64,000 bases of DNA from Myxococcota bacterium (lineage in GTDB: Bacteria; Myxococcota_A; SURF-8): contig OZ223209.1 of the NCBI GenBank assembly GCA_965140415.1, forward strand, positions 2,880,001 to 2,944,000, written 5' to 3'. The notes under the pieces are model-generated. The model was not told where the DNA came from. It saw only the letters and a list, made by a program, of their open reading frames with translations, and did no database searches. Made by a program: the position numbers and the translations under genes. How positions within the stretch are numbered: position 1 is the first letter of the stretch; every line of letters starts with the position of its first letter. Below, in pieces: positions 10,207 through 63,781 of the stretch.

Positions 10207-10379
10207 GGATCGATCCTTTCCTGGTCGAGCTGGAAAACCGTGGCGGTACGTTCCAAATTAGCAATTCAATACGATAGCTTTATATCAGAAAGTGAAGATT
10301 CATAGAAACGAAAAGTTAACATTTAATAGAGAGATATGCAGATTTTAGCGAGTGTGTGAGTTGTACTGTATTGAGGATT

Positions 10380-31859: not shown

Positions 31860-33140
31860 TCAGCGAAGCTTCGCAATCAGATGATGAGAGTGATTGTACA
31901 AGTCACCTGCAATTACATCTACGATATTATTGCGAATATCTTCTTCAGAGTCAATCAGGACATGGTAATAATTTGTAGAGAAGCCCTGGTACAATCTGCT
32001 TTCTCTGTGCTTGTCCTGTTCAACCAATACGGTAAGTGTTTTTCCGAACTGGCGTTTGGCGCTTTGCAGGCGCGACTGCTGGTCTAATTCGATAAGGCGT
32101 CGGGCGCGCTCGCGCCTTTGTTGAACCGGAACCTGATCCGGCATGGAGGCGGCAGGAGTGTCGGGACGCTCGGAATAGGGGAAAACGTGCAGATAGTCTA
32201 TCGGGAGTGTTCGGATAAAGTCTTCCGTTTGTTTGAATTCATCCTCGCTTTCACCGGGAAAGCCGACAATCACATCCAAACCGATTCCGACATCTAATAT
32301 TTCCGAGACGGCTCGCTCGATGCGCTGGGCATAGTGGCGGGTGCGATAGGGGCGTCGCATTCGTTCAAGAATCGAATCGCAGCCGCTTTGTAATGGGATG
32401 TGTAGATGTGGGCATATCGAATGAGCGTACTTGATGATATCAATAACCCGATCCGTCAATTCCAGTGGCTCAAGAGAACTGAGCCGAATTCTCGGAATGT
32501 GCTTGCTTTCATCCAGGGCTTGTAGGAGATCTGAAAATACCGGCTTGCCGGGTAAGTCGCGTCCCCATTGGCCGATATGAATGCCGGTCAACACAACTTC
32601 CTTGTAACCCTGTTCACCAAGTGCAGAAAGTTCCTCTACAGCTTGGTTAATGGGTTTGCTGTTTACCGGACCTCGCGCACGAGGAATGATGCAATAAGAG
32701 CAATGCGCTTCGCAACCATCCTGCACCTTAAGGTAGGGACGATCTCTGGTGCTGAAGCGGGGACCGTGATCGTTTATGCTTGGCTTGTAACCATGACTTC
32801 GGGCCCGTTCGAGGAGCAGTTGTATTACGCCGTTTGTTTGCTCTCGGGTGACAATCTGGTCGATTTCTTGAATTTTGAGCAATTCGTTTTTGGCGGTATT
32901 GGCATAGCATCCAGTCAGGATAACCAGTGCCTCCGGTGAGGTGCGTCGTGCGCGATACGCAAACTGACGGCTTTGTCGGTCTGCCGTGGCTGTAACGGTA
33001 CAGGAGTTGATGATATAGGCATCCGCCTGTTGCTTGAAAGGAACCTGTACGAAAACCGCTGGATCCAGTTGACCCAGCAGACGTGCAGAATCGTAGTGGT
33101 TGGTTTTACAACCCAACGTAGTGATTGCGATACGAAACAT
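31860..33140 (-). CDS. mtaB: tRNA t6A37 methylthiotransferase
   Basis: TLGCKTN, INSCTVT, LKVQDGCEAHCSYCIIP, HIPLQSG, LHVFPYSERP, TRAM domain. Confidence 0.92.
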   Translation of the reverse strand: MFRIAITTLGCKTNHYDSARLLGQLDPAVFVQVPFKQQADAYIINSCTVTATADRQSRQFAYRARRTSPEALVILTGCYANTAKNELLKIQEIDQIVTREQTNGVIQLLLERARSHGYKPSINDHGPRFSTRDRPYLKVQDGCEAHCSYCIIPRARGPVNSKPINQAVEELSALGEQGYKEVVLTGIHIGQWGRDLPGKPVFSDLLQALDESKHIPRIRLSSLEPLELTDRVIDIIKYAHSICPHLHIPLQSGCDSILERMRRPYRTRHYAQRIERAVSEILDVGIGLDVIVGFPGESEDEFKQTEDFIRTLPIDYLHVFPYSERPDTPAASMPDQVPVQQRRERARRLIELDQQSRLQSAKRQFGKTLTVLVEQDKHRESRLYQGFSTNYYHVLIDSEEDIRNNIVDVIAGDLYNHSHHLIAKLR

Positions 33141-46605: not shown

Positions 46606-47955
46606 GTGGATCTGATCGTCACCAATGGAATCTGCTATACGCCGGAAGGGCCGAAACAAGCCGATGTCGGTGTTCTGGAAGGACGCATTGCGGCGATTGG
46701 TGAACTTCGATCCGAATATCCAAGTGCAAAAGTTTATGATGCTCAGGGACGCGCCGTGCTGCCGGGCTTGATCGATATGCATGTCCATGCGGACGATCGC
46801 ATCGGTGAATTCAACTTGGCGGACAACTGGGTAACGGTGTCATCTGCTGCAATAAAAACGGGAGTGACCAGTCAACTGGGATTTTGTACGCAGCACAACG
46901 CAGAAACTATGCAACAGGGATTGTCGCGTTGCTACGGTAGAGCGTTGGGGCGCAGCTATTGTGACGTTGGGTTTCACGTTACACCAACAGGGTATACCGA
47001 TTCGATGTGGCAGGAGATGCGACATCTCGGATCGGATGGCTTGCATACACTGAAATTGTATACCACCTACAAGCAGGCCGGATTGTATGTGGACGAGCAT
47101 CGAATGGAGAAAGTGTTTTTATTAGCCGCCCGAATGGGATGGACCGTGCTCGTTCATTGTGAAGATGAAGATGTCTTGCAAAAAAGCAAAAAGACTCCAA
47201 CTGATGCATCCAATGCGATGCTTCACGCTGTAATCAGACCGGAGGAGGCTGAGGTGGCTGCCGTGCGAAAGGTGGTGCGACTGGCCAATCGCACGGAAAC
47301 TCGGGTTCACATCGTTCACGTTTCCAGCCCGGAGAGTGTCAACGCGATCCGAGAGTGGGACACCCATGAACTGGTTACCTGTGAAACGGCGATGCAGTAC
47401 GTGTTGCTTAATGAAAAACGCTTGGAAGGCGCGAGAGGACATCGTTACTTGTGTACTCCTCCCTTACGTAGCGAGCAGAGCCGATCGAGCTTGTTGCAGA
47501 TCGTAAAATCCGGCGGGATTGATTGCCTGGCTACGGATCATTGTGCGTTTAGTCCGCAAGACAAGGATCTGCACAAGGATGATTTCCAGCGCGTACCAAA
47601 TGGCCTGGCTGGCGCCGGTTCGCTTGTTCCTCTTGCTGTGGAATTGCTGGTCGGTGGAGATCCGTCAGGTTGGTCAGACGTCGTGCGGATGTTATCGGAG
47701 AATCCTGCAAGAGTATGCGGATTGTATCCAAAGAAAGGTTGCTTGGCTGTCGGGTCGGATGCAGACCTAGTCGTAGTGGATGTGCAGGGGGCAAGTCGTC
47801 CTGTGATAAGCAGTGAGCAGGATTGCTACGAACCATATGGCGATTTCGAATCACGCTTGAACGTGCGATTGGCACTGCTGCGTGGCCGGGATGTGGTGAG
47901 AAATAACCGCTTGGTACGGCCTACCGTGCCGACGGGAGGGAATGTATGGGACTAG
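46606..47955 (+). CDS. hydA: Dihydropyrimidinase/hydantoinase (HyuA/YgeZ-like)
   Basis: PGLIDMHVH, KLYTTY (carbamylated Lys), VHCED, HIVHVS, PPLR, ATDHCAF, PNGLAG, GSDADLV. Confidence 0.82.
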   Translation: MDLIVTNGICYTPEGPKQADVGVLEGRIAAIGELRSEYPSAKVYDAQGRAVLPGLIDMHVHADDRIGEFNLADNWVTVSSAAIKTGVTSQLGFCTQHNAETMQQGLSRCYGRALGRSYCDVGFHVTPTGYTDSMWQEMRHLGSDGLHTLKLYTTYKQAGLYVDEHRMEKVFLLAARMGWTVLVHCEDEDVLQKSKKTPTDASNAMLHAVIRPEEAEVAAVRKVVRLANRTETRVHIVHVSSPESVNAIREWDTHELVTCETAMQYVLLNEKRLEGARGHRYLCTPPLRSEQSRSSLLQIVKSGGIDCLATDHCAFSPQDKDLHKDDFQRVPNGLAGAGSLVPLAVELLVGGDPSGWSDVVRMLSENPARVCGLYPKKGCLAVGSDADLVVVDVQGASRPVISSEQDCYEPYGDFESRLNVRLALLRGRDVVRNNRLVRPTVPTGGNVWD

Positions 47956-50201
47956 AAAATCAGAAAGCCTGGCGTAACGATGCGTATGCAAAAGTGACCG
48001 GGCAGGCGCGATATACAGACGATTACAAGATGCATGGACAGTTGTATGCCGCGCCGGTCTATACAGAGTATGTTCACGCACGAATTCGTTCATTCGACAC
48101 CTCCGATGCGAGCAATGCAGCCGGGGTGGTGAAAGTCATTACTGCAAAGGATATTCCAGGAACGCATCGCTTTGGCCAGATTCGTCAGGACTATCGCCTG
48201 TTGTGCGACAAGACGATTCGTATGCATGGCGACGTGGTCGCTTTGGTTGTGGCAGAGACTCGAAAAGATGCGGAAGCGGCGGCGCTACTAGTAAAAGTGG
48301 ATGCTGAACCATTACCCATTCTCACAGATCCTGAACTGGCTATGTTGCCGGATGCGGTGCAGATTCATCCAGAATACGAAAACAACATTACCAACCACCA
48401 CAAAATCCGTCGAGGAGAAGTACAGTCAGGGTTCGATTCTTCAGATGTGATTATTGAACAGGAATTTCAAACCCAGCGTATCGAGCATGGATATCTGGAA
48501 CCGGAAGCGGCCTTGTGCTTTCCACGACCGGATGGCGTTATGGAAGTGATGGGCAGTATGCAGCATCCTTTCAGTACGCGGCGTTTCGTGGCGGCGATCC
48601 TTGGAGTTACACTTTCAGAGGTAGAGGTGCGTTCCGTTTCGATGGGCGGAGGATTCGGCGGCAAGGATGATACGGCGGCCATTGTCTGCGCCCGCTGTGC
48701 GTTAGCGGCAAAGCTATGCGGTAAGCCGGTCAAACTGATTTACAAGCGTGAATGGTCGATGCGCGAGAGTTATAAACGGCATCCCTATAACGTGCAGTAC
48801 AAAATGGGATTATCGAAAGACGGGTTGATTCAAGCTGTCAAGGTTCGAGCCGTCGCCGATGCCGGAGCGTACTGCTCGGTCACGCCCTGGGTGACATGGC
48901 GCTCCACGGTGCAGTGTTGCGGACCTTACAAGGTTCCTAACGTCCATTGCGATGTGTTCGGCGTTTATACGAATAACGTATTCACGGGGGCCATGCGCGG
49001 TTTCGGTTCTCCGCAGATGAACTACTGCGTGGAGCAGATGATCGAAATGGCGGCGGAAAAGCTGGGCATAGGTGGAATCGAGTTGCGACGGAAAAACATG
49101 CTGCATCAGGGAGATGTTACCATTACCGAGCAGATTCTCGATGGTCACACTGTGAGCCTGGAACCGGTTATGGACAAGGTGCTAAAAGCTATCGATTACG
49201 ATAGAAAATTCACTCAGTGTACCTTTGGCAAGGCTCAGGATGGCGAAGATTACGGCATCGGACTGGCCATCAGCTATCGTGGAATGAGCCTGGGTGCGGA
49301 AGGTAAGGACTTCAACGGTGCGGTGATCAACGTGCAGTTCGATGGCTCGATTCTGCTGGAAGTGGCGATCCACGAAAACGGGCAGGGAGCCGAGTCGGCC
49401 ATGGTGCTGTTGCTGGCTGAAAAACTGGGCGTGAAACGGGAGCGTATCCGATATAAGCAAGGCTCCACCAGCGCTATCCCGGATGGTGGAACGACCGTCG
49501 CTTCGCGTGGAACGCTGATGGGCGGAGGTGCGGTGGTGCATGCTGCCGAGAACCTGAAAAAGAAGATGGCGCGAGTGCTGGCTGATGTATTGGATTGCAC
49601 GCCAGACCAGGTCCGTTTTGAAGAAGATGAAATTAAAGGACCGAATAAGGTTTTGAGTTTTGAGGATGCAATCACACAGATGTTCTTGAAGCAGGAGTAC
49701 CCCTATGCCTTCGGTTCATTCAAAGCACCGCGTGTCAGTTGGGAAGAGGAAAAAGGCGTTGGTAATGCCTATTTTACTTGGGTGTATGGTTGCCAGGCTG
49801 TGGAACTGACTGTGAATAGAGATACAGGAAAAGTGACATTGTTGAATGCCGTTGCCGCTCATGATGCAGGCAAGGTTGTCAATCCCCCCATGCTGCTGGG
49901 ACAGTATTATGGCGGCATGGCCATGGGTGTAGGCTACGCACTAAAGGAGGAAGTCACTTCGGAAGAGGGGAGAGTGACCTCGCTGAATTTCAATCGTTAC
50001 CATATTCCGCGTTCTACCGATCTGCCGGAAATGCAGGGAATCATTGTAGAGAATCGTGATGAGCAATCTCCTTCGGGAGCGAAGGGGATCGGTGAGCCGG
50101 TGACGGAACTAATGGCTCCGGCGATCGCAAACGCCTTGTATCATGCCACCGGAAGGCGACAGACTACGCTGCCGATGCGTAGCAAGGAGAGTCGCCAATG
50201 A
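47946..50201 (+). CDS. Xanthine-dehydrogenase-family molybdopterin-binding subunit
   Basis: KVTGQARYTDD, EHGYLEPE, MGGGFGGK, AMRGFGSPQ, ENGQG, TVASRG, GAKGIGE. Confidence 0.93.
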   Translation: MGLENQKAWRNDAYAKVTGQARYTDDYKMHGQLYAAPVYTEYVHARIRSFDTSDASNAAGVVKVITAKDIPGTHRFGQIRQDYRLLCDKTIRMHGDVVALVVAETRKDAEAAALLVKVDAEPLPILTDPELAMLPDAVQIHPEYENNITNHHKIRRGEVQSGFDSSDVIIEQEFQTQRIEHGYLEPEAALCFPRPDGVMEVMGSMQHPFSTRRFVAAILGVTLSEVEVRSVSMGGGFGGKDDTAAIVCARCALAAKLCGKPVKLIYKREWSMRESYKRHPYNVQYKMGLSKDGLIQAVKVRAVADAGAYCSVTPWVTWRSTVQCCGPYKVPNVHCDVFGVYTNNVFTGAMRGFGSPQMNYCVEQMIEMAAEKLGIGGIELRRKNMLHQGDVTITEQILDGHTVSLEPVMDKVLKAIDYDRKFTQCTFGKAQDGEDYGIGLAISYRGMSLGAEGKDFNGAVINVQFDGSILLEVAIHENGQGAESAMVLLLAEKLGVKRERIRYKQGSTSAIPDGGTTVASRGTLMGGGAVVHAAENLKKKMARVLADVLDCTPDQVRFEEDEIKGPNKVLSFEDAITQMFLKQEYPYAFGSFKAPRVSWEEEKGVGNAYFTWVYGCQAVELTVNRDTGKVTLLNAVAAHDAGKVVNPPMLLGQYYGGMAMGVGYALKEEVTSEEGRVTSLNFNRYHIPRSTDLPEMQGIIVENRDEQSPSGAKGIGEPVTELMAPAIANALYHATGRRQTTLPMRSKESRQ

Positions 50202-50671
50202 AGACAATCGTAAACCGTAAGGAAATTGTAATCAGTGATCAATTGCGGGAAATGAACCTGCTGGAGTTTCTGCGCGAAGAACTGGACCTGACCGGATCGA
50301 AAAACGGTTGCGACGGTTCCGGCATTTGCGGTGCTTGCACGGTGTTGCTCGATGGAAAAGCGGTTAAGTCCTGTAAAAAAATTGTGGGAGACATCGAGGG
50401 CAAAGAGCTTTTGACGATAGAGGGTATGCAGGATGAACAAGGAAATCTGCATCCACTGCAACAGGCATTTATCGATTGCGGCGCGATTCAATGCGGATTC
50501 TGTACGCCCGGCATGGTGATGCGCTCCTATGGATTGTTATTGAAAAACCCGAAACCCGGTCAGGAAGAAGTGCGGCGGGCATTGGGAACGAATTTGTGCC
50601 GTTGCACAGGATATCAACAAATCATCGATGCGGTCATATCCGCTGCGGAAATTCTTTCTAAAAAGAAATGA
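50198..50671 (+). CDS. (2Fe-2S) subunit of xanthine-dehydrogenase-family enzyme
   Basis: GSKNGCDGSGICGACTV, QCGFCTPG, NLCRCTGY; overlaps the Mo-subunit stop. Confidence 0.95.
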   Translation: MKTIVNRKEIVISDQLREMNLLEFLREELDLTGSKNGCDGSGICGACTVLLDGKAVKSCKKIVGDIEGKELLTIEGMQDEQGNLHPLQQAFIDCGAIQCGFCTPGMVMRSYGLLLKNPKPGQEEVRRALGTNLCRCTGYQQIIDAVISAAEILSKKK

Positions 50672-50694
50672 ACATCAAGACGGTTAGGTGAACC

Positions 50695-51891
50695 ATGACG
50701 ACAGAAACCATAAAAAAGAACCTGAAGCGCTTGCAGAAACTTTCAACGGATATGCAGCATAAGGATTTTCTGCTGACCTGGGAAAAAAGCGACGAAGAAA
50801 TCAAAGCCGTTTGTCATACGGCGCAGTGTCTCAAGGAAATGAACAAGCAGGGCTTGAGTTTCCGTATGTTCGATACCGGACTGGCGATTTCGATTTTCAG
50901 GGACAACAGCACGCGTACGCGCTTCAGTTTCGCTTCGGCGGCAAATGCATTGGGCTTGACGGTTTCCGATCTCGATGAAAAGAAATCTCAAATCGCCCAC
51001 GGAGAAACCGTTCGTGAAACGGCCAACATGATTTCTTTCATGACCGAGGCCATCGGTATTCGCGATGACATGTATCTGGGAGAAGGCAATGCGTACATGC
51101 GTGAAGTCGGACAGGCGGTGCAGGAAGGTTTCGATAAAGGCGTGTTGCATCGACGCCCAACCTTGGTGAACCTGCAATGTGACATCGATCACCCGACACA
51201 AACACTTGCCGATTTGATGAAATTGCGGAATTACTTTGGATCATTCGAAGAGATGAAGGGCAAGCGTATCGCCATGACTTGGGCGTATTCGCCGAGCTAT
51301 GGAAAGCCGCTGTCCGTGCCGCAAGGGATTATTGGTTTGATGACCCGGCTTGGAATGGATGTGGTTCTTGCGCACCCGGAAGGTTACGATCTCATTCCAG
51401 AAGTGGAAGAGATTGCACGAAACAACGCGGCACGCTCTGCGGGATCGTTCAGGAAAGTAACGACAATGGAGGAAGCTTTCGAAGGCGCTTATGTCGTCTA
51501 TCCGAAAAGCTGGGCTCCGTATCGCATCATGCAACAGCGTACACCCTTGTTGAAAAATGGCGATCATGAGGGCTTGAAACAACTTGAAAAAACGTGTTTG
51601 GAAAATAACGCCGAATTCATGAATTGGGAATGTGACGAAAAGAAGATGGCTAAAACGCATGACGGCAATGCCTTGTACATGCATTGCCTGCCTGCGGATA
51701 TCAGTGGTGTAAGCTGTAAGCAGGGAGAAGTGAGTGCCGAAGTCTTTGAAAAATACAGGCTGGAAACTTATCACGAGGCAAGCTATAAGCCTTATGTCAT
51801 TGCAGCCATGATTCTACTCGCAAAGGTTTCCGATCCTGCGGAAGCGATTCAAAACTTGCTGGAGCGAAACAGTATTAACCAGTTCGTGTAA
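50695..51891 (+). CDS. ygeW: Knotted carbamoyltransferase YgeW
   Basis: FRDNSTRTRFSF, NLQCDIDHPTQ, WAYSPSYGKPLSVPQG, YPKSWAP, HCLPAD. Confidence 0.95.
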   Translation: MTTETIKKNLKRLQKLSTDMQHKDFLLTWEKSDEEIKAVCHTAQCLKEMNKQGLSFRMFDTGLAISIFRDNSTRTRFSFASAANALGLTVSDLDEKKSQIAHGETVRETANMISFMTEAIGIRDDMYLGEGNAYMREVGQAVQEGFDKGVLHRRPTLVNLQCDIDHPTQTLADLMKLRNYFGSFEEMKGKRIAMTWAYSPSYGKPLSVPQGIIGLMTRLGMDVVLAHPEGYDLIPEVEEIARNNAARSAGSFRKVTTMEEAFEGAYVVYPKSWAPYRIMQQRTPLLKNGDHEGLKQLEKTCLENNAEFMNWECDEKKMAKTHDGNALYMHCLPADISGVSCKQGEVSAEVFEKYRLETYHEASYKPYVIAAMILLAKVSDPAEAIQNLLERNSINQFV

Positions 51892-51923
51892 AAACAAACA
51901 ACTTTAAGAAGGCGTAGCGATCC

Positions 51924-53414
51924 ATGACATCATTTCAATCACGCATCATCGATCACATTGATCCGGAAACCGTTTCCAATAATGCCCAGCGCTGTCGCGA
52001 GCGGGGAATCGTCATTCCTACTTTCAAGCAACTGAGAAATCCGGAGACGATTCCGCAGTGCATCACGCGCCGCCTGCCCGAAATCGGTTTATGGGATGTC
52101 AATCCGCTCAATCTCTTTCGCATCACTTGGAAAAACGATGTCGCCAGCGGCTTGTTTGGTGGCGTCAACTATCTCGAGATCCCATCCGAAATTAGCGGAG
52201 TAAAGGCGCGCATCATCGGGTTGACCGGCAAGTTCTTTCCAACCGGTGCTCACAAAGTAGGGGCGGCTTTCGGTTGTCTCGTGCCACGTCTGGTAAGTGG
52301 TGCTTTCGATCCGACTAAGCATAAGGCCGTATGGCCATCGACTGGAAATTACTGCCGGGGTGGCGCCTATGATTGTGCGCTGTTGGCTTGTACTGCGGTG
52401 GCGATATTGCCGGAAGAGATGTCGCAGGAACGTTTCAATTGGTTGCGCGAAATCGGATCGGAAGTGATTGCTACGCCGGGCTGCGAATCCAACGTAAAGG
52501 AAATCTACGATAAATGCTGGGAGTTGCGTGACGATCCCGACAATATCATCTTCAACCAGTTCGATGAATTCGGAAATCCGATTTTCCATTACTCAGTTAC
52601 CGGTCCGGCAATCGAAGAAGTATTTAACGAATTGGATGGGGATGCATTGCGTCTGGCTGCGTATGTTTCAGCAACCGGTTCGGCAGGGACCATTGCCGCC
52701 GGTGATTATCTTAAGTCGCTTTACCCAACGGCAAAGACCATCGCTGCCGAGGCGTTGCAATGTCCGACATTGCTGATGAATGGTTTCGGCGGACATCGCA
52801 TCGAAGGCATTGGCGACAAGCATGTCCCCTGGGTGCATAACGCTCGTTCTCTGGATGCGGTCGCGGCAATTGACGACAACGACTGCATGAAAATAATGCG
52901 CTTATTCAATGAAGATGTGGGTCTGGAACTGTTGAAATCGCAAGGATTAGATGACGAAAAAGCGGAGAAGCTGTCTCTGCTTGGTATCAGCAGTATTGGA
53001 AACCTGTTGGCTGCAATAAAGACCGCCAAGTATTACGAAATGGATGAAAACGATGTGATCTTTACCGTTTTCACCGATTCGATGGAACTGTACGGGTCAA
53101 GAATCGAGGAAATGCGGGCGGAGCAAGGCAGCTATGAAACGATTCAGGCTGCACAGGACTTCTCCGGCTCGGTGATTGCACAGGGAATCGACTATTTTAA
53201 GGAACTGGGCTATTACGACCGCAAAGCCGTTCATAACCTTAAATATTATACCTGGGTGGAGCAGCAAGGGAAGACCTACGAAGAAATCCTTGAATTATGG
53301 AAACCTGAATTCTGGCGTTCCATGTTCGAGGATGAAGTGGCTGTATTCGATCGCATGATCGACGAGTTCAATCGCGAAGTCGGATTGCTGGATACATGGA
53401 AAAGGGAAGGGTAA
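51924..53414 (+). CDS. PLP-dependent fold-type-II enzyme (cysteine-synthase-like), purine-cluster associated
   Basis: FPTGAHKVGA (PLP Lys), WPSTGNYCRGG, NQFDE, TGSAGT, HRIEGIGDK. Confidence 0.85.
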   Translation: MTSFQSRIIDHIDPETVSNNAQRCRERGIVIPTFKQLRNPETIPQCITRRLPEIGLWDVNPLNLFRITWKNDVASGLFGGVNYLEIPSEISGVKARIIGLTGKFFPTGAHKVGAAFGCLVPRLVSGAFDPTKHKAVWPSTGNYCRGGAYDCALLACTAVAILPEEMSQERFNWLREIGSEVIATPGCESNVKEIYDKCWELRDDPDNIIFNQFDEFGNPIFHYSVTGPAIEEVFNELDGDALRLAAYVSATGSAGTIAAGDYLKSLYPTAKTIAAEALQCPTLLMNGFGGHRIEGIGDKHVPWVHNARSLDAVAAIDDNDCMKIMRLFNEDVGLELLKSQGLDDEKAEKLSLLGISSIGNLLAAIKTAKYYEMDENDVIFTVFTDSMELYGSRIEEMRAEQGSYETIQAAQDFSGSVIAQGIDYFKELGYYDRKAVHNLKYYTWVEQQGKTYEEILELWKPEFWRSMFEDEVAVFDRMIDEFNREVGLLDTWKREG

Positions 53415-53417
53415 CGG

Positions 53418-54350
53418 TTATTCCGATGTGAGAATTCGCTTGATGATCTCTTCTGCATCGCGGTGTTGCGGGCGTAATTCAGATGCATCGTAAGCTCCCC
53501 CGAGATCCCACAGACCGGCGCAGATGTCCGATAAACTACATAGATCGCAGATTGGTGCTTTCTGGTAACGCCAGCCCTGCTCGCGGTAATCGCCACGGTC
53601 ATCCAGAAAATGAATGATGCGTTCATCGCCTTTGACGATGGCGCGGGTTTCCGTGCTGGCGTAGGCGAATTCTCCCATGTAACATAACGGCACCTTTTCC
53701 AAACGGAATGTCCGACCGCTTCCTTCTAGAAATTCCATGCAGGCTAAAAGTGAGCTTTCGCATTGAGCCAAAGTAGGGATGGTCTCCGGGTGATCGGCCA
53801 CACGGTTCATGTACGGGTCTAGGAAAGTCCAACTGAAATGGTGCACGAAAGGAAAGTTGTCGCAAATCCAGCGCGCCGTCTGATCCAGATGATCGGCATT
53901 CTGGGCGCAGATCGTTTGGTTGATATCCACGGCTGTTGATGTGTTTCGAAGCAAAAACAGGCTGCGAACGATATTGGATAGCGAATCGTGATTTCCGGTC
54001 AGTTGCGCCTGGACAGAAGCATGATGACTGTGAATCGAAAGATGGATGTGCCGTAGACCGGCATGCAATAGCGAGTTCAAATAAGCGGGGTCGGCTGTTT
54101 TCTGTCCGTTGGTGATCACACGGCAGGGCATATCTTTTTCATGGCAATACGCAATCAACTCGGCCAGGTAGGGAAATAAGGTCGGTTCACCACCTGTTAG
54201 AATAACACCGTCGTAGCCCTGGCGGATGTGCACGTCGATCATGTCCATGGCTTGTTGAACGGTCAATTCCTTGCCGGTTTCCGGATTCGAACAAAACCGG
54301 CAATTCTGATTGCATTGCCGGTTGACTTGTATATATCCCAGGTTGGCCAT
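53418..54350 (-). CDS. Radical SAM protein with C-terminal Cys cluster (HxsC-like architecture)
   Basis: CNQNCRFC, LTGGEPT, ITNG, VPLC, C-terminal CDLCSLSDICAG...Y...EL.P. Confidence 0.9.
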   Translation of the reverse strand: MANLGYIQVNRQCNQNCRFCSNPETGKELTVQQAMDMIDVHIRQGYDGVILTGGEPTLFPYLAELIAYCHEKDMPCRVITNGQKTADPAYLNSLLHAGLRHIHLSIHSHHASVQAQLTGNHDSLSNIVRSLFLLRNTSTAVDINQTICAQNADHLDQTARWICDNFPFVHHFSWTFLDPYMNRVADHPETIPTLAQCESSLLACMEFLEGSGRTFRLEKVPLCYMGEFAYASTETRAIVKGDERIIHFLDDRGDYREQGWRYQKAPICDLCSLSDICAGLWDLGGAYDASELRPQHRDAEEIIKRILTSE

Positions 54351-54527
54351 CGATCGCCTTTTCGATTCATGCTCAGCTCTTCAACGCAGCGGATTGTACA
54401 CCAAGCTGTATCAAAAAAACATGTTCAAATACAAATCGGAATGATTTCTTAAAAGATGAAAAAGCATCCCGATCCATAGCAGGCTATGGTATATACGAAT
54501 TCGAAACGTACTAGTTGGAGGTAGGGA

Positions 54528-57500
54528 ATGTCCCCGAATGCATGGTCACATCCTGTTTATCGAAAGCGCTTGCGTAGCTATGGGCTACGTTTTGCGTTGA
54601 CGGATGCATTCGGTACGCGATTGGAGCCGGAAGAGATCGAGAGTAATCTACGCGAATTTGGGCTGGAGGATTTTCAGATCGTGCTGTCAGATGACGGCTG
54701 GACGCTGCATCATCCAGGATTGACCGCCAAATGCGATGCCGTTTCGTTTTCAGCAACGTGGTTACGGGAAAAACTCTCTCCGTTATTACCTGTGTACTTA
54801 CAGGCAGAAATGTTTCCAAACGAGAACGAGTTTAAAAGTGTTTTTATCGATCAACGTTCTCACGAATTTGAAACGATAGCGCTCGCAGAAGTTCGACAGT
54901 CAGAAGCATTTTCGAATGAAATCATTGAAGAACTGTTGTTGAGAATATTTGAGAAATCGGCTGCTTTTAACAAACCGCAAAAATGCTCCCTCAAAATTCA
55001 AGATGGTAATGAGTGGCAACATCGCTTGAATTCCTTGCAAAAAGTTATAAATGAAGCCTTTCCCAAGATGGGCTTAAATCCAAAGAATGTTTCATTGCGG
55101 ATTCGCATGAGAAACGGTCGAATCGAGACTGTTGAAAACAACCATGTAAATCGCGCTAAAAAGGACAAGAGCGTTTCCTTCCTTTTGTGGGAAAAACCGG
55201 AAACAGAAGAAAACGGACAAGCCACCCTCGTTTTTGCCATGTCGCAGTCTGAGGCTGCCATCACATGGCTTTGTAAACAGTTCGACGAAGGTTTGGAAGA
55301 GCAAGCTCCTAAGCATCCGATCTTGTTGGATGGACTGCAATGGGAGATCGCTCGCAAACCTACGATCGCCCGAATCGGTGGAAAATCGTTAGCAGGTGCG
55401 ATCTGTCTTGATGCATCCTCCTGCGATGCCTGCAAATTATGCGAGCGCGCCTGTCCGATGCAGTGCTTGACAATCGATGATGGAAAACTGGAAATCGATC
55501 GAGAACGCTGTTTGCAATGTTATGATTGTATCGAGGTCTGCCCGGCCAGTGCTTTTCGGCCAATCTACAATCAAGCCAGTGCGATGTGGAGTGAACGGGT
55601 GATGGAACGCCCCGGCTGGCTGGGACGTTTGGCTGGCCTACCGGGACCGGCTTTCCCTGCCCCATATCCGCCGTCTTATCTTTTACCGAAAACAAAAAGT
55701 TCTCGAAGCGTGATTCTTGGCCTGGCGATTACGACAATGCAGGAACATGCGGCGGCCTTGATCATCGATGGTGAGGTGGTTGGGGCTATCGAGGAAGAAC
55801 GCATCAATCGGCTGCGTCACTATGGTTGGACGCCCACCGGACGAGACGGCGTAACCCTGGCCGTCGATCCGACGATCTGCCTGGAAGAGGCATTGTGTCG
55901 CAGGTCGATTCGCGGATTGCTGTCCGAGCATGGACTCACCCTGGATGATGTGGACTGCTTTGCATTGAATGGCATTCCTGCCAAATATCGCCGCAGTTAT
56001 TCTCTGACGGATCAACATCGGCCCCCACAGGTGTTGGATTCGGGAAGGATCGTTTGCATTCCTCATCATCTCGCGCATGCCGCATCCGCGTTTAGAATGT
56101 CGGGAATGGAAGAGGCGTGGGTGTTGACTGTCGATGGACGCGGGGACCGCGAAACGGCGGCGCTATTTCATGGTGAACGTGCAACGCTAAGCAGAAAAGC
56201 GGATTGGCTTGCGTTGACGGACCGCAGTATTGGCAGTGTATACGAAAACGCCACACGCCTTTTAGGATTTGGAACGCATGGGCAGGGCAGTTTGATGGCC
56301 CTGGCAGCCTTTGGTTCGACAACCGTGGATGTTAGCGAGTTTTTACGCGCGGATGATGATGGACGTCTCCACGTTCAAGAAAGCGGTCTTCAGAAGAAGT
56401 TTGACAATTTGAAACAAGAGGAAACACAAGAGATCAATCAAGAACAGATGGATCTTGCCTCCTCCATTCAGCAGGCACTGGAGGACGTTGTGTTTTCCAT
56501 GTTGCGCGAAAACGGTGTTGAAAACGGTGCTAAGGGCTTGTGCCTGGCTGGTGGCGTCGCTTTGAACTGTCGTCTGAATCAGCGCCTGCTCGAAGAATTC
56601 TCTCCAGTCGAGTTGTACGTGCAACCGGCGGCAAATGATGCAGGAACGGCCCTGGGCGCGGCGCTTGAAGCATGGAGTCGAAAGACAGATGAGCCGGAGA
56701 ACGTTTGTTACGGTCACAGCTATTGGGGACCGGCATTCGATGAAGAGGAGATGAATTCCGTGTTGGCCAGATACGGCTTGGACTATCGCCGTAGCGACAG
56801 ACTGGAACAGGAGTGTGCCGAACTGCTGGAGCAGGGCCAGGTGTTGTGCTGGTTCCAGGGACGTATGGAGTTCGGTCCGCGTGCACTGGGCGCTCGCAGC
56901 ATTCTTGCCGATCCCAGAAAAGCTGAGTTGAAAGATCGTGTGAACCGCATCAAAACAAGGGAATCCTGGCGGCCCTTCGGTCCCAGCGTTTTAGCGGGTC
57001 ATGAAAACGACTGGTTCGAGCCCGGCCTGGACAGCAACTACATGCTTTTCACCTTGAAAGTTAATGAAGAAAAGAGAGATAGGATTCCGGCGGTGATGCA
57101 TATCGATGGCAGCACACGTCCCCAGGTGGTTCATCGTGAAACGAATGAGCGCTACTTCGATCTGATCGATGCCTTCTTCGCACGCAGCGGCGTGCCGATG
57201 GTTTTGAACACCTCTTTCAACCGACGCGGTGAGCCGATCGTCTGCACGCCACAGGATGCCGTAGACTGTTTCCTGGATACGGACGCAGATGTGCTGGCGC
57301 TTGGACCATTCATCGCTACACGAGCGGAGGCGCAACATTCTGCAACTGAAAAAGATGATTGCGGCGAATTGGAAACGCTACGGGCGTATCCGACTGATCG
57401 GAGACTGTTGCTACGTGTCACCACGGATTGCGATAACGACTGTTCTTTCTGTACGCTAAGGGATTTGCGTGGTCACAGGGAAAGATCGTTGTTGCAGGTG

Positions 57501-58289
57501 GAAAACTCGTTACAGCAGGGACGCCAAACTGGTTGTGGTGAACTGGTGATCATGCGTGGAGAAGCCACACAGAATCCGAACTTGATCAGTTTGGTGCGTA
57601 TGGCCCGAAACATGGGCTATCGGAAAGTACAGTTGCAAACCAACGGACGACGCCTGGCGGAACCGTCCTATCGTCTTCGATTGCTGGATTCGGGTGTCGA
57701 TACCTTTGAGATCGGCCTGGCTGCTGCAAATGAAAAATTGCATGACAATCTGGTAGGACGTGCTGGGGCGTTTCGTGAAACGGCACTTGGTATACGGGCG
57801 CTCATTCGGGCGGGTGCCGATGTATTGATTACGATTCCGGTGCTAAGAAAAAATCGTCATGAACTTTCGCACATTGTTGCGCTTGTTCATAAGCTTGGTG
57901 TAAGCAGAGTCCAGTTTAATTTCCCGCGTCCAGTAGAGATCCCCCGGCAGGTCGTTACGAAACCGCTCTCACGCCTTTCTGTGGTTTCTCCCTTTGTACG
58001 GGAAGCCGTCAAGTTGGCGCAGAGCCTGGGATTGTTTGTCTCCACAGAGGCGTTTCCCTTTTGTCATCTCGATGAAAGCCTGCATGCAACGCCGGATGCC
58101 ACCGAAGACTGGCGTCGCTATCGGGTGGACGATCTCCACCTGTTGCACGACTCCTTGAAAGAAGAAAGAAAACGTGCCAGATTGCAAGCGGAACCTTGTA
58201 AAGAATGTCGATTGCAGGAGGCCTGTCCTCGTACCTGGGCGATTTATCTTGAACTGTTCGGAAGCGGAGAATTGATCCCGTTTCGCTGA
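54528..58289 (+). CDS. Fusion: unknown N-domain, 2x[4Fe-4S] ferredoxin, CmcH/NodU carbamoyltransferase, radical SAM
   Basis: GGAGG RBS; CDACKLCERACP and CLQCYDCIEVCP; EEERINR, HHLAHAASAF, VDGRGD, LAGGVALNC, PAANDAG, GRMEFGPRALGARS, RESWRPF, HIDGSTRPQ, LNTSFN; CDNDCSFC, QTNGRRL, FPFC, CKECRLQEACP...YLELFGSGELIPF. One uninterrupted frame. Confidence 0.92.
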   Translation: MSPNAWSHPVYRKRLRSYGLRFALTDAFGTRLEPEEIESNLREFGLEDFQIVLSDDGWTLHHPGLTAKCDAVSFSATWLREKLSPLLPVYLQAEMFPNENEFKSVFIDQRSHEFETIALAEVRQSEAFSNEIIEELLLRIFEKSAAFNKPQKCSLKIQDGNEWQHRLNSLQKVINEAFPKMGLNPKNVSLRIRMRNGRIETVENNHVNRAKKDKSVSFLLWEKPETEENGQATLVFAMSQSEAAITWLCKQFDEGLEEQAPKHPILLDGLQWEIARKPTIARIGGKSLAGAICLDASSCDACKLCERACPMQCLTIDDGKLEIDRERCLQCYDCIEVCPASAFRPIYNQASAMWSERVMERPGWLGRLAGLPGPAFPAPYPPSYLLPKTKSSRSVILGLAITTMQEHAAALIIDGEVVGAIEEERINRLRHYGWTPTGRDGVTLAVDPTICLEEALCRRSIRGLLSEHGLTLDDVDCFALNGIPAKYRRSYSLTDQHRPPQVLDSGRIVCIPHHLAHAASAFRMSGMEEAWVLTVDGRGDRETAALFHGERATLSRKADWLALTDRSIGSVYENATRLLGFGTHGQGSLMALAAFGSTTVDVSEFLRADDDGRLHVQESGLQKKFDNLKQEETQEINQEQMDLASSIQQALEDVVFSMLRENGVENGAKGLCLAGGVALNCRLNQRLLEEFSPVELYVQPAANDAGTALGAALEAWSRKTDEPENVCYGHSYWGPAFDEEEMNSVLARYGLDYRRSDRLEQECAELLEQGQVLCWFQGRMEFGPRALGARSILADPRKAELKDRVNRIKTRESWRPFGPSVLAGHENDWFEPGLDSNYMLFTLKVNEEKRDRIPAVMHIDGSTRPQVVHRETNERYFDLIDAFFARSGVPMVLNTSFNRRGEPIVCTPQDAVDCFLDTDADVLALGPFIATRAEAQHSATEKDDCGELETLRAYPTDRRLLLRVTTDCDNDCSFCTLRDLRGHRERSLLQVENSLQQGRQTGCGELVIMRGEATQNPNLISLVRMARNMGYRKVQLQTNGRRLAEPSYRLRLLDSGVDTFEIGLAAANEKLHDNLVGRAGAFRETALGIRALIRAGADVLITIPVLRKNRHELSHIVALVHKLGVSRVQFNFPRPVEIPRQVVTKPLSRLSVVSPFVREAVKLAQSLGLFVSTEAFPFCHLDESLHATPDATEDWRRYRVDDLHLLHDSLKEERKRARLQAEPCKECRLQEACPRTWAIYLELFGSGELIPFR

Positions 58290-58321
58290 CCGTCGCATTT
58301 TCTGAATCATCAAGAATCGAT

Positions 58322-60580: not shown

Positions 60581-60643
60581 TTAGTCAGATAGAAACACGG
60601 AAAAGTCTGAATTGTCATGGAATACTTAAGCAGGAGGAGTGGC

Positions 60644-63600
60644 ATGAGTCGCCTTACACGGATGGACTGGCTTCTTTTTTGTATGGCAGTAAGCCTGCTG
60701 TTTGTTTTCGTTGCCTGCTCGGATGATGGCAGCGCCGATGATGTCGCCCCTGACGGTGATAGAGAACAGAATCCTATCGTGGATGGAGATTATTCCTGCC
60801 CGGAAGGATATTCGTGTTCTCCCTGTACAAGTGATGTCGATTGCGATCCGGGAATGCTTTGCGATCTTGAGGACGGAATTTGCAAACCCTCCGGTATACC
60901 CGGTGATGAGGACGAGGAAACTCCAGACGGAGACATCATTGTAGATGGAGATCTGGCCGATAGTGACAAACTGCAAGACACGGACGGGCGAAGAATCGTT
61001 GTCGAGCCAACCTCCGTGGATTTCGGCGCGGTGCAATGGGGACGATCGAGCACTAAAGAGGTTGTCGTCAGTAATGAAGACGCCGCTACTTTGGATTTGG
61101 AAATTCAGGATATGCAATTCGTTACCGAAGGCGCACTTGATTTCTCCTTCGAAATCTGGAACCCGGATTCCGGTGTGGTTTCGGATCTTCCTATTTCTCT
61201 CGCTCCAGGAAAAAGCTTAATCGTCAAACTGACTTACAGCCCGACAGATGAAATCGACGATGCAGGCGAACAGTTGTTGATATCGAGTAATGACGGAGAT
61301 CGTCCCATCGTTCGCGTGACGATGAACCCGCAGTACAAAGGCGAGGCCAAGCTGGTTGTGTCTCCGGATCCAATTGCGTTTGGTGACATCCCGATATACA
61401 GTTCCAGCATCATCGATGTGACGATCAGCAATCAACCGGTGGATGAAGATACCAACCGCGTGCTGAAAATCACCAATCTGTCTCTTCAGAACGGGCAGTA
61501 TGTCGATGCATCTCTGGTAATGACTCCCACTAGCACTCCCAGCAGCGATCAGCCGGTTTTCTTGATCCCCGGCGACTCGATCTCTGTGAAAATGGAATAT
61601 TCACCTGCGGTTATGGGAACCTTGCTGAATGGATTGTTCCTGACATGTAACGATCCCAATGCCGGTCCGGTCGTAGAGATTCCCATCACCGGAAAGGGTG
61701 TGCAAGCCGACTTGGCTGTGATTCCCACTCCGATCGACTTCGGCGCACGAAGAATTGGGGAAACCCACTTCTTGTCTGTGGAAATCGCGAACGTGGGAAA
61801 TGAAAGTTATCCCATCGAAGCCGTGTCCCTGGTCGATGAAAATCCCTTGTTCGCACTGGCTTCGATAACGCCAGACTTGCCTTGGCTGCTGCTGCCAAGC
61901 GAAACAGCCACAATCAATGTGAGCTTCTCGCCGGAAGAGCTGACGCAGGTTTTCGATAAATTGTGGTTACAAGGTGGCGTAAACGACGAGGGTGAAAGAA
62001 AACCGGACTACTTTATCGATGTCAAGGGGTCCGGTTCGCAAGCCTTGATTCGGTTGGAACCGGCGGACGTGATCGATTTCGGCAATGTGCAGCATGGTCA
62101 AACGGAGGTTCAGCAACTTCGAGTCTATAGCGAGGGAAATGAGTCGCTAACGATCTCCAGCTTGCAGATGAGCACGGATGGCAGCGCCGATTTCGCCTTT
62201 ACGGATGTTCCCGGAATTTACGAATCCATTCCGGTGGGGCAGTCGCGCTTGATCGATTTTACCTATACGCCCGATGAGGGCGGACTGCGCAGTTCCTGCA
62301 AGATCTTTTCGAATGCCGGCAACGCCGCAGAAGATGGCTCCGTCACTCTACAATTGCAAGGCAGCAGTAACGATCCCATTTTCTTCGCACAGCCCGACAG
62401 CATCGAATTCGACTCCATTCCGCAGGGAGACCGAGACACCGTTCAGGTAATGGTCAAGAATATCGGCAATGGAAGTCTTACGATCTACTCGGCAGGCATC
62501 GATATCGGCTCCAGCCCTTATTACGGTGTCGAAAATTTCCAGGTCGGTGGAAATGCCGTCTCATTGCCCTTGGAATTGGGACAAAGCCAAACGATGACAT
62601 TCGATGCCTTTTACGAGCCTTACGGACCGGGGGAAGCCACCGGGGCGCTGTCGATTGTCCATAATGACTACGATGAGTTCGGCCCTGGAGATCTGGACCG
62701 AACGGAACATACGATTACTTTACATGCTTCTGGTCCGGCCAATACCCGACCGGTGGCGGTGCTTCGCGCCAATTATTCCGAAGAGGATATTTCGCTGCCG
62801 AAAGATGCGGTGGTGATACTTGATGGTGTGGAAAGCTACGATGACGACGAAGGCGACACGATCGCAGATTATGACTTCACGATCGACACCGCACCTGCCG
62901 GTCATAATACGTTGGAAGGCACGGGCGACAGCCGCCATGTCATTCTGAATGCTGCGGGAGACTGGATCTTTTCGCTTCGAGTGCAGGATAGCAATGGCGA
63001 ATGGAGTTCCAGCGATACCTTGCGTGTGACGGTGACGTCCAAACCTGTCGCGGTGATTCGCGCCAATACTGTTACTGAATTATTGGAAGATGCACGCGCC
63101 GGTGCCGAGTTGTATCTGGATACGGTCGGGAGTGTCGACCCGGATGGCGGAAATATTATGGATTGGGAATTTCGCATCGATTCGCTACCTGCCGGTGCAA
63201 CTTCAAGTTTAACCGGCAGCGCCGGTTCTCGTTCGATTTTCCCGGATCGGATCGGCACCTGGACCTTCATGGCTCGCGTTCAGGATGATGAGGAAGAATG
63301 GTCGGATTGGGCGACGGTGGTCGTGGACGTCATCCGTCCACAGACGATAGATATCGTCATGCAGGGGGTAAATACCTGCTGGGGCGATCTGATCGGTTAC
63401 CGCCTGTTCTTTGAAAGCAAGGATGGCGAAAATTGCGGACCGAGTGAATGTTTGTGGGGGCCGCGTCATTCCGGTAATTGCAACAACTTAGGGAACAACG
63501 AAGGGGACTCGGAAATCATTTGGGACTACTCCGAGTTATTGAACAGTTATCCTTCCGGTATGGATGGCGAGTACCACATTCGCGTGGAGCGGGTCGGTTT

Positions 63601-63781
63601 CAGTATCCTTTTGGGAGAGCATGTCACAGTTGCGCTTTATGTCGATGGTGAAGAGCAGGTCTGGTGGGATCTGGAGCATGATTTCGGCTCGTCCGTAGGT
63701 AACAACTGGGATATTTACCTCTTCCGTCATGATGGTCTATGGGAAATTCCGCACAATTGTGTGCCGGGAGGATGTCTCTGA
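60644..63781 (+). CDS. Surface lipoprotein with five choice-of-anchor-D/ASH Ig-like repeats and two PKD-like domains
   Basis: AGGAGG RBS; lipobox FVAC; PTSVDFGAV, PDPIAFGDI, PTPIDFGAR, PADVIDFGNV, PDSIEFDSI; two PVAV.RAN...LD...S.D.D repeats. Confidence 0.82.
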   Translation: MSRLTRMDWLLFCMAVSLLFVFVACSDDGSADDVAPDGDREQNPIVDGDYSCPEGYSCSPCTSDVDCDPGMLCDLEDGICKPSGIPGDEDEETPDGDIIVDGDLADSDKLQDTDGRRIVVEPTSVDFGAVQWGRSSTKEVVVSNEDAATLDLEIQDMQFVTEGALDFSFEIWNPDSGVVSDLPISLAPGKSLIVKLTYSPTDEIDDAGEQLLISSNDGDRPIVRVTMNPQYKGEAKLVVSPDPIAFGDIPIYSSSIIDVTISNQPVDEDTNRVLKITNLSLQNGQYVDASLVMTPTSTPSSDQPVFLIPGDSISVKMEYSPAVMGTLLNGLFLTCNDPNAGPVVEIPITGKGVQADLAVIPTPIDFGARRIGETHFLSVEIANVGNESYPIEAVSLVDENPLFALASITPDLPWLLLPSETATINVSFSPEELTQVFDKLWLQGGVNDEGERKPDYFIDVKGSGSQALIRLEPADVIDFGNVQHGQTEVQQLRVYSEGNESLTISSLQMSTDGSADFAFTDVPGIYESIPVGQSRLIDFTYTPDEGGLRSSCKIFSNAGNAAEDGSVTLQLQGSSNDPIFFAQPDSIEFDSIPQGDRDTVQVMVKNIGNGSLTIYSAGIDIGSSPYYGVENFQVGGNAVSLPLELGQSQTMTFDAFYEPYGPGEATGALSIVHNDYDEFGPGDLDRTEHTITLHASGPANTRPVAVLRANYSEEDISLPKDAVVILDGVESYDDDEGDTIADYDFTIDTAPAGHNTLEGTGDSRHVILNAAGDWIFSLRVQDSNGEWSSSDTLRVTVTSKPVAVIRANTVTELLEDARAGAELYLDTVGSVDPDGGNIMDWEFRIDSLPAGATSSLTGSAGSRSIFPDRIGTWTFMARVQDDEEEWSDWATVVVDVIRPQTIDIVMQGVNTCWGDLIGYRLFFESKDGENCGPSECLWGPRHSGNCNNLGNNEGDSEIIWDYSELLNSYPSGMDGEYHIRVERVGFSILLGEHVTVALYVDGEEQVWWDLEHDFGSSVGNNWDIYLFRHDGLWEIPHNCVPGGCL

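Follow-up and report, generated by a model that had tools for sequence, protein, structure and literature searches.

A ferredoxin-carbamoyltransferase-radical SAM fusion protein and its radical SAM partner: a candidate module associated with Group VI nitrogenase-like genes

We analysed a stretch of Myxococcota DNA (the window: 64,000 nucleotides of contig OZ223209.1, lying at 2880-2944 kb of a 5.98 Mb genome, G000, assembled as a single contig) and found that one of its genes, at 54528..58289, encodes in a single frame of 1253 amino acids (aa) a TobZ/NodU-type carbamoyltransferase with both of its halves, preceded by a 2x[4Fe-4S] ferredoxin and followed by a radical S-adenosylmethionine (SAM) domain, as assigned with Pfam. 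A standalone radical SAM gene lies divergently beside this fusion, whose product we call P0001. We propose that the pair performs a radical step and a carbamoylation on an intermediate of the pathway served by Group VI nitrogenase-like (Nfl) reductases, a proposal for and against which we find the case evenly balanced. The pair is laid out as follows, in positions of the window.

53418..54350, - strand: standalone radical SAM partner, 310 aa, HxsC-like (Pfam Radical_SAM, 73.6 bits)
54351..54527, no strand: divergent intergenic region of 177 bp between partner gene and fusion, containing GGAGG at 54517-54521
54528..58289, + strand: whole fusion gene (P0001), ATG start, 1253 aa, no internal stops
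54528..55382, + strand: family-specific N-terminal domain, residues 1-285, an alpha/beta fold in the AlphaFold2 (AF2) model
54567..54866, + strand: first subdomain of the N-terminal domain, residues about 14-113, weakly like the C-terminal lid of PaaK-type acyl-CoA ligases
55395..55577, + strand: 2x[4Fe-4S] ferredoxin domain, residues 290-350 (Pfam Fer4_7, Fer4, Fer4_9)
55578..55712, + strand: conserved proline-rich linker, residues 351-395 (RPGWLxRLxGxPGPxxPAPxPPSYLLPK)
55713..56666, + strand: Kae1/ASKHA-like transfer half of the carbamoyltransferase, residues 396-713 (Pfam PF02543)
56817..57320, + strand: YrdC-like carbamoyl-adenylate-forming half, residues 764-931 (Pfam PF16861)
57390..58289, + strand: HxsC-like radical SAM domain, residues 955-1253 (Pfam PF04055)

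The original prediction, made from the letters of the DNA, had described a four-part protein encoded in one frame, and this architecture and its domain assignments held up. The Pfam scan of P0001 returned 15 families at E <= 0.1, among which Fer4-type, Carbam_trans_N, Carbam_trans_C and Radical_SAM all exceeded their cut-offs, and the open reading frame is intact, with GGAGG placed 6 nt 5' of its ATG. The architecture is shared by a family. Searching 5.8 billion proteins yielded 810 hits within the searched length band, and the best 119 non-self homologues, 37-53% identical to P0001, were analysed by BLASTP against each part. All four parts were present in 84/119, from many independent assemblies; ferredoxin, carbamoyltransferase and radical SAM only were found in 25, carbamoyltransferase and radical SAM only in six, and everything except the radical SAM domain in four. 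Our literature search on the combination of carbamoyltransferase, radical SAM and ferredoxin, also together with Elusimicrobia, found no characterised protein of this architecture, in agreement with what the prediction had said.

Nothing was found to speak for an artefact, either an assembly chimera or a decaying pseudogene; G+C content is 0.46 over the N-terminal part and rises to 0.54-0.55 over the carbamoyltransferase. Against an artefact, the frame is intact, the catalytic motifs are invariant and the architecture recurs in the 84 homologues. A single 33,588-nt Logan contig of run X1 moreover spans 53400-58300 with 0 differences and 0 gaps, its source data being possibly the same as the window's, and short contigs of run X2 cross the junctions at about 55600 (55280-55715) and about 57350 (57235-57611). 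Both junctions are thus bridged, with no internal stop. Given the spanning contig and the four-part homologues, a chimeric assembly is ruled out, and we give the artefact explanation, refuted by the same evidence, practically no weight.

The carbamoyltransferase is complete with both domains, as the prediction had it. Carbam_trans_N (PF02543) matched residues 508-713 at 127.1 bits (cut-off 24), and Carbam_trans_C (PF16861) matched residues 764-931 at 231.8 bits (cut-off 27), covering positions 1-169 of 170. The transfer half carries HHLAHAASA (H513/H514/H517), VDGRG (D536; VDGxG across the family) and ANDAG (D704), and the YrdC-like half carries GPRALGxRS, WRPFxPS, HxDGSxRPQ (HxDGxxRPQ across the family) and NTSFNxxGEP. 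We take the conserved residues to be metal- and nucleotide-site ligands by analogy with TobZ, with which the motifs align identically. With both Pfam domains and the TobZ-shared site motifs, P0001 belongs with the class III carbamoyltransferases (NodU/CmcH/TobZ). Since the TobZ-shared motifs of both halves are invariant in 25/25 aligned homologues, the carbamoyl-adenylate chemistry of P0001 is very probably intact.

Alignment to solved structures gave E-values of 2.5e-81 for TobZ (3ven), 2.3e-76 for GdmN (7vyj) and 1.3e-72 for NovN (9s2t). P0001 shares with TobZ, GdmN, NovN, NodU and CmcH both full-length halves and the motifs HHxxH, DG.G, xxD.G, GPRALG, WRPF, RPQ and NTSFN. However, TobZ-type enzymes stand alone at about 570-700 aa, whereas P0001 adds about 395 residues in front and about 300 behind, and, compared with TobZ, extra residues are inserted near 428-450. 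NodU proper is represented by the NF041651 equivalog, to which P0001 scored 162.7 bits against a cut-off of 1000. HypF also combines YrdC-like and Kae1-like chemistry via carbamoyl-adenylate, within a metal-cofactor ([NiFe]-hydrogenase) pathway. P0001 shows a weak HypF_C_2 match at residues 627-710 (21.8 bits, below the cut-off of 27), but it has neither the acylphosphatase nor the zinc-finger domains of HypF and is much closer in sequence to TobZ.

The ferredoxin domain is equally well defined. Two CxxCxxCxxxCP motifs had been placed at about 55400-55550, and they were located at nt 55422-55544 (C299/C302/C305/C309-P310 and C328/C331/C334/C338-P339). Fer4_7 matched residues 299-342 at 32.4 bits (cut-off 27), and the eight cysteines are invariant in 25/25 and 64/64 aligned homologues. 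The modelled fold superposes on 1dur_A with Z 9.2 and a root-mean-square deviation (rmsd) of 1.4 over 55 residues, and on 9bt4_H with Z 9.6. Two motifs, a Fer4 dicluster match and a clostridial-type fold match identify it as a bacterial-type 2x[4Fe-4S] ferredoxin. In the linker that follows, W364, L365, R367, G370, P377 and P382 are invariant across the homologue alignments. A genome scan with a pattern built from the ferredoxin motif beside the linker recovered the family's loci.

At the C-terminus of P0001, Radical_SAM (PF04055) matched residues 964-1118 at 68 bits (cut-off 29.5). The prediction had listed a CxxxCxxC triad, a deviant MRGE in place of GGE and a terminal CxxCxxxxxC motif, and all three were confirmed. 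The triad is C968/C972/C975 (nt 57429-57452), with F974 preceding the third cysteine, and it is intact in P0001. MRGE stands at residues 1009-1012 where a canonical radical SAM enzyme has GGE. The terminal motif is C1224/C1227/C1233, followed by YLELFGSGELIPF; together with C1179 these residues make four C-terminal cysteines at nt 58062-58226. We counted conservation in the 110 homologues whose tail is complete. Of these, 81/110 have an intact triad and 29/110 have lost it, 98/110 have MRGE or LRGE instead of GGE, and all 110 retain the four C-terminal cysteines. Because of the RGE replacement and the triad losses, the fused radical SAM domain cannot be regarded as a conserved catalytic core. 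Its conserved role, judging from these residues, is probably that of holding an auxiliary cluster and probably of pairing with the partner; in P0001, where it is intact, the fused domain may also cleave SAM.

The family of the fused domain is less readily named. In NCBIfam it scored 93.5 bits to HxsC4 NF038332 (cut-off 500) and 67 to HxsC TIGR03977 (cut-off 267.9). As these curated cut-offs and that of NodU are not reached, P0001 is not a member of NodU, HxsC or HxsC4. None of the 15 Pfam families found in P0001 at E <= 0.1 is a SPASM family. The best match of the fused domain in the PDB is BlsE (7vob, E 2.4e-7). Pseudo-radical-SAM proteins (TIGR04347, pseudo-SAM/SPASM) gave a weak 40.8-bit match; the 29 triad-less yet conserved family members resemble them in this respect, and P0001 differs from them in its intact triad.

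The divergent partner retains what the fused domain has partly lost. Its CxxxCxxC triad (C13/C17/C20), GGEPT motif and four C-terminal cysteines (C223/C268/C271/C277) are invariant in 13/13 orthologues. It is a paralogue of the fused domain, with 20% identity to residues 962-1237 of P0001 (E 2e-11). We compiled a de-duplicated table of 32 unique loci carrying the ferredoxin-linker plus carbamoyltransferase, and an orthologue of the partner (45-63% identity) adjoins the fusion in 15 of them. Conversely, a search with the small gene returned 10 close orthologues (60-63% identity), nine of them directly beside a fusion and divergent from it. Where the fused triad is degenerate and flanks are available, a live small gene adjoins the fusion in 4/5 loci. 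The homologues P0017, P0047 and L009 have a radical SAM unit of more distant kinship joined to their N-terminal end. In a further genome (G004) the module is split into three separate adjacent genes, one for a ferredoxin-carbamoyltransferase, one for a small radical SAM enzyme and one for the counterpart of the C-terminal radical SAM domain.

The fusion had been predicted to be a self-contained tailoring machine, and this part of the prediction fails. The enzyme is not self-contained, because a conserved partner accompanies it in the 15 loci or is fused at the N-terminus in some homologues, because the fused domain is decayed across the family (RGE in 98/110, triad lost in 29/110), and because four of the 119 homologues have no radical SAM domain. 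Two such members, L116 (P0115, 888 aa) and L119 (P0104, 923 aa), end after the carbamoyltransferase; these fusions are convergent on an nflH-D-K operon whose end is within about 100 bp of them.

The likeness of both radical SAM units to HxsC could point to a different kind of target. In a protein or peptide maturase, the HxsC-like pair would modify a side chain, the carbamoyltransferase would cap it and the N-terminal domain would recognise the substrate. In NCBIfam the fused domain and the partner score best against HxsC4 and HxsC, and like HxsB and HxsC of the HXS antiphage system the two occur as a pair. This genome also encodes further paralogues of this radical SAM type. HxsB and HxsC share with our pair the two cluster sites, an N-terminal triad and C-terminal cysteines, and they mature a protein effector, HxsA, according to the passages on these proteins in PMC13128918. 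The scores, however, are far below the cut-offs (67 for the fused domain and 86.7 for the partner, against 267.9 for TIGR03977), and the fused copy has RGE rather than GGE and is degenerate in the 29 members mentioned. No HxsA- or HxsD-like gene stands beside the pair in the window, and PADLOC gave no Hxs hit, only weak viperin-type matches of 26 and 57 bits. The partner starts directly at its radical SAM core (triad at residues 13-20) without a leader-binding domain, and structural searches with the N-terminal domain of P0001 gave no match of the RiPP recognition element (RRE) type among their best 50 rows. A peptide had been among the suggested targets; it is not favoured, because a precursor gene would not fit next to the pair in the window. 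A maturase of this kind thus appears improbable.

What points to a pathway is the company that the fusion keeps elsewhere. Clustering the neighbours over 33 loci gave two recurrent families, both nitrogenase component-1-like (Pfam Oxidored_nitro). With the homologues of this genome as probes, 10 of the 32 unique loci proved to have NflD-, NflK- or NflH-like genes no more than 12 kb from the fusion. At locus L019 they form an operon-like string in which the genes overlap or are separated by a 55-bp gap.

6781-8424, same strand as the rest of the string: nflD-like gene
8372-9820, same strand: nflK-like gene
9802-11952, same strand: radical SAM gene, 716 aa
12008-15553, same strand: fusion
15553-16497, same strand: small radical SAM gene

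The genome of the window itself contains two Nfl loci, given here in genome positions.

915799-919053 (L202): order D-K-H, 737, 438 and 273 aa
1056413-1060658 (L203): order H-D-K, 280, 723 and 430 aa

Its NflK-like protein reaches E 1e-35 to 1e-50 with the Elusimicrobia proteins encoded beside fusions and scores only 21-53 bits (maximum 52.9) against solved nitrogenase and dark-operative protochlorophyllide oxidoreductase (DPOR) chains. Among 41 relatives, PF00148 occurs in all five genomes that carry the fusion, whether whole or split (G000, G001, G002, G004, G005), and exceeds its cut-off in 8/36 of those without it. The D-like proteins of both loci are extended at the N-terminus by about 300-350 residues. 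Next to the end of the first set (915799-919053) comes a PAS/histidine kinase gene; the neighbours of the two loci, a histidine kinase and a protein without assignment, gave no clue.

The family has a narrow distribution. When 185,579 species genomes were scanned for one pattern of the ferredoxin motif, 28 loci with the whole ferredoxin-linker stretch were found, a lower bound because a single pattern was used, and all 28 are from metagenome-assembled genomes labelled Elusimicrobia, Myxococcales/Myxococcota, Polyangiales, Deltaproteobacteria or Proteobacteria. According to the main text of Meheust et al. (2020, bioRxiv 10.1101/765248), the Group VI Nfl system, known from groundwater Elusimicrobia and from aquatic Myxococcales, is accompanied by many radical SAM genes and is proposed to reduce a tetrapyrrole. 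The main text of a 2026 review (PMC13474568) describes the Group VI nitrogenase-like proteins as having no characterised member and their gene context as having been of little help so far. The word 'carbamoyl' has 0 occurrences in the main text of either source; supplementary Figure S6/Dataset 2 of Meheust et al., outside our scope, may draw the gene. The fusion family thus shares with Group VI NflHDK clusters a rare phyletic range, adjacency in the 10 loci, the operon-like L019 string and the two Nfl loci of this genome, and differs in that the pair in the window is detached from Nfl genes. The link between fusion and Nfl genes is frequent, and it is neither universal nor physical in this genome.

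Several points weigh against placing the pair in a Group VI pathway. No Nfl gene was found in the available flanks of 22/32 unique loci, and 17/32 have no close orthologue of the small gene in theirs. In this genome the Nfl loci lie 1.8-2 Mb from the window, which itself holds no Nfl gene adjacent to the pair, and no radical SAM gene flanks either Nfl locus. The co-occurrence in five out of five genomes overstates independence, because the relatives are kin, and is only suggestive; in 10 further fusion-bearing genomes PF00148 was found in six, with no match in G041, G042, G045 and G050, whose completeness is unknown. The Nfl genes of this genome are likely Group VI, judging from NflK similarity. 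Bit scores of NflH were tried as a test of Group VI membership and rejected, since 171-231 bits to the Elusimicrobia neighbours and 188-222 to true NifH do not discriminate. We know of no carbamoylated tetrapyrrole.

The loci without Nfl genes suit another explanation, in which the pair is a stand-alone module tailoring a secondary metabolite, glycan or lipid, and its co-location with Nfl genes in Elusimicrobia reflects radical-SAM-rich islands. The nearest characterised relatives of the carbamoyltransferase, TobZ, GdmN, NovN and NodU, tailor secondary metabolites or oligosaccharides, and the substrate of BlsE, the nearest radical SAM enzyme of solved structure, is a sugar nucleoside. The 22 loci without Nfl nearby, the four further genomes without PF00148 and the isolation of the pair in the window are also consistent with it. 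However, the neighbour clustering brought out no recurrent polyketide, non-ribosomal peptide synthetase, glycosyltransferase or sugar-nucleotide family around the fusion, and the L019 nflD/K string and the rare phyletic pattern shared with Group VI are hard to explain by chance. We consider such a tailoring module somewhat unlikely.

The retained cysteines raise the further idea of a metallocluster maturase, in which the (pseudo) radical SAM domain would serve as an Fe-S scaffold for turning a carbamoyl group, supplied in the manner of HypF, into a C/N-derived ligand or atom of the catalytic Nfl cluster. The four auxiliary and eight ferredoxin cysteines are always kept, even where the triad is lost, and the sub-threshold HypF_C_2 match would fit. 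The main text of PMC13474568 also states that organisms with only Group VI Nfl lack NifB. According to the same text, however, the clusters of Group VI are probably simple [4Fe-4S] ones; neither a HypE-like dehydratase nor a HypC/D-like partner is among the recurrent neighbours, and four of the 10 further fusion genomes lacked a PF00148 match. We think this very improbable. A broader version, in which the pair carries out dedicated Group VI steps, couples radical and carbamoyl-adenylate chemistry within a single complex, and either builds an undescribed kind of cofactor that is carbamoylated or bears a carbamoyl-derived ring or ligand or, more boldly, acts as a HypF/NifB-like hybrid maturase supplying the Nfl catalytic cluster with a carbamoyl-derived C/N ligand, is to our mind doubtful.

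Returning to a radical step and a carbamoylation in a Group VI pathway, the domain identities, residue conservation and gene linkage that we observed allow a course of reaction to be drawn up, with the chemistry inferred by homology to TobZ. The YrdC-like half would make carbamoyl-AMP from carbamoyl phosphate and ATP, and the Kae1-like half would pass the carbamoyl to a hydroxyl or amino group of a small-molecule acceptor. This acceptor would be an intermediate that is also worked on by a radical SAM enzyme. The canonical radical SAM step would fall to the divergent partner, and possibly to the intact fused domain too; the built-in ferredoxin would relay electrons to the radical SAM and auxiliary clusters. 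The fused HxsC-like domain would hold an auxiliary four-Cys cluster and probably pair with the partner, while the N-terminal domain would probably be a docking or substrate-holding module derived from a PaaK-type lid. The electron path, the order of the steps, the substrate and the Nfl link in this genome are inferred along with the chemistry. The pair would then form a portable module of two genes within the radical-SAM-rich suite found together with Group VI Nfl genes, and the pathway served by these reductases would, on the proposal in the literature, lead to a tetrapyrrole-type cofactor.

The N-terminal domain is the least familiar part of the protein. About 285 residues without a recognisable motif had been noted, and indeed residues 1-285 match no family in Pfam or NCBIfam. 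An ESM Atlas search with residues 1-290 gave no usable match either. Within the family, homologue alignment reveals the motifs TDAFGTRL, TWLRxRLSPL, VDxR, ALAE and LLDGLxWxxxRRPT. The AF2 model (predicted local distance difference test 86.7, predicted template-modelling score 0.83) consists of strand pairs and long helices. No known fold clearly resembles it, the top structural hits having Z 6.1 and 5.9 and those of Foldseek E >= 1e-2, and no RRE-type chain is found in the best 50 rows of either structural search. With residues 1-290, phmmer against 1.84 billion representatives returned 24 hits at E <= 1e-3, comprising eight proteins of 664-1580 aa, six of which (P0003, P0017, P0021, P0052, P0090, P0114) recur among the P0001 homologues, and 16 proteins of 114-440 aa.

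The clearest, though weak, likeness is that of residues about 14-113 to the lid of PaaK-type (ANL) ligases. The subdomain superposes on 3lax_A with Z 5.9 and rmsd 3.3 over 91 aligned residues and on 4r1l_A with Z 5.7, and the lids of 3lax, 4r1l, 6hdw and 6siw together give Z 5.0-5.9; Foldseek matched it weakly to 2y27_A (E 1.2e-2, prob 0.99). The large adenylation domain of these ligases is absent from P0001. Long-form homologues (L012/P0096, P0091, P0097, P0103, P0107), by contrast, carry a PaaK-like adenylation domain ahead of the ferredoxin, which scored 120.8 bits to NF045666 (below the cut-off of 300) and matched PDB 9s3l at E 2.1e-13. It sits just before the position equivalent to the lid-like subdomain. 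That the short N-terminal domain descends from the lid end of a PaaK-type ligase fits these long forms; an hhalign comparison of its profile with the long-form N-terminus was not significant (Prob 0.2, E 0.3), and the aligned stretch starts just past the adenylation-profile region. The long forms (L012:7931-12997 among them) are chains of 1420-1690 aa that would unite two adenylate-forming modules with ferredoxin and radical SAM. A separate PaaK-like gene as a partner in this genome was rejected, the one NF045666 match being of 27 bits and far from the fusion.

A different fusion was seen at L110:6102-9716 (-) of G006, with similar frames of about 1200 aa in G008, G009 and G017 of the same order and phylum. 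It has an N-terminal carbamoyltransferase (42-45% identical), followed by about 650 residues without a Pfam match except for a sub-threshold DUF483.

The pair has no companion genes in the window: on either side lies a convergent gene, one of the PALP family and one of the Exo_endo_phos type, and in the neighbour comparison none of the flanking genes recurs at other fusion loci. Upstream lies a co-directional cluster of the ygeW/xanthine-dehydrogenase type (46606-53414, + strand). The surrounding genes are listed below.

46606-47955, + strand: amidohydrolase
47946-50201, + strand: molybdopterin subunit of the xanthine-dehydrogenase family
50198-50671, + strand: [2Fe-2S] subunit
50695-51891, + strand: knotted carbamoyltransferase YgeW (NF005538, 682.6 bits, above the cut-off of 453)
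51924-53414, + strand: CysK-like pyridoxal-phosphate enzyme, 496 aa
58322-60385, - strand: Exo_endo_phos protein, 687 aa, convergent on the fusion
60617-63781, + strand: HYDIN/ASH/DUF1573/PKD Ig-like repeat protein, 1054 aa

YgeW-type enzymes handle carbamoyl phosphate, the co-substrate of the neighbouring fusion. A functional link between the fusion and the 46606-53414 cluster was nevertheless rejected as coincidence, since none of its genes recurs at the 13 other fusion loci compared. Over 54200-54700, Rfam at E <= 1 gave no match and hence no riboswitch clue. The promoter and terminator scan found two promoter-like sites, against 4.4 expected, and no sigma-70-like site in 54351..54527. G+C content is 0.46 over the partner-gene start, intergenic region and N-terminal domain (54000-55500) and 0.54-0.55 over the carbamoyltransferase part (55500-57500). 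The Elusimicrobia orthologues are 60-63% identical for the small partner and about 47-52% for the fusion. With the G+C contrast, this difference may indicate lateral transfer of the module.

Another radical SAM gene lies within the window at about 32214-32729 (-), and the whole genome has 91 radical SAM domain matches at E <= 1e-5. HxsC4-like paralogues occur as tandem or fused pairs at 4676148-4677948 and 4263280-4265028 and singly at a third place; their neighbours, FadB, DnaX and an aminotransferase, were uninformative. The gene at 4263280-4265028 encodes a 710-aa double radical SAM protein. Orthology of this protein to the 716-aa radical SAM protein of L019 was rejected, the similarity being only generic.

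In the carbamoyltransferase, the Nfl genes have a chemically specific neighbour, one from which the product of the pathway would be expected to bear a +43 Da (CONH2) mark or some carbamoyl-derived group. This prediction names carbamoyl phosphate and ATP as co-substrates and thereby gives metabolomics and enzymology a concrete target. The copy in this genome is a good gene source for heterologous work, because the genome is a single contig, the triad is intact and both Nfl loci are present. The family as a whole, in which the fused radical SAM domain ranges from intact to dead while its paralogue next door stays live, lends itself to the study of how such domains turn into scaffolds.

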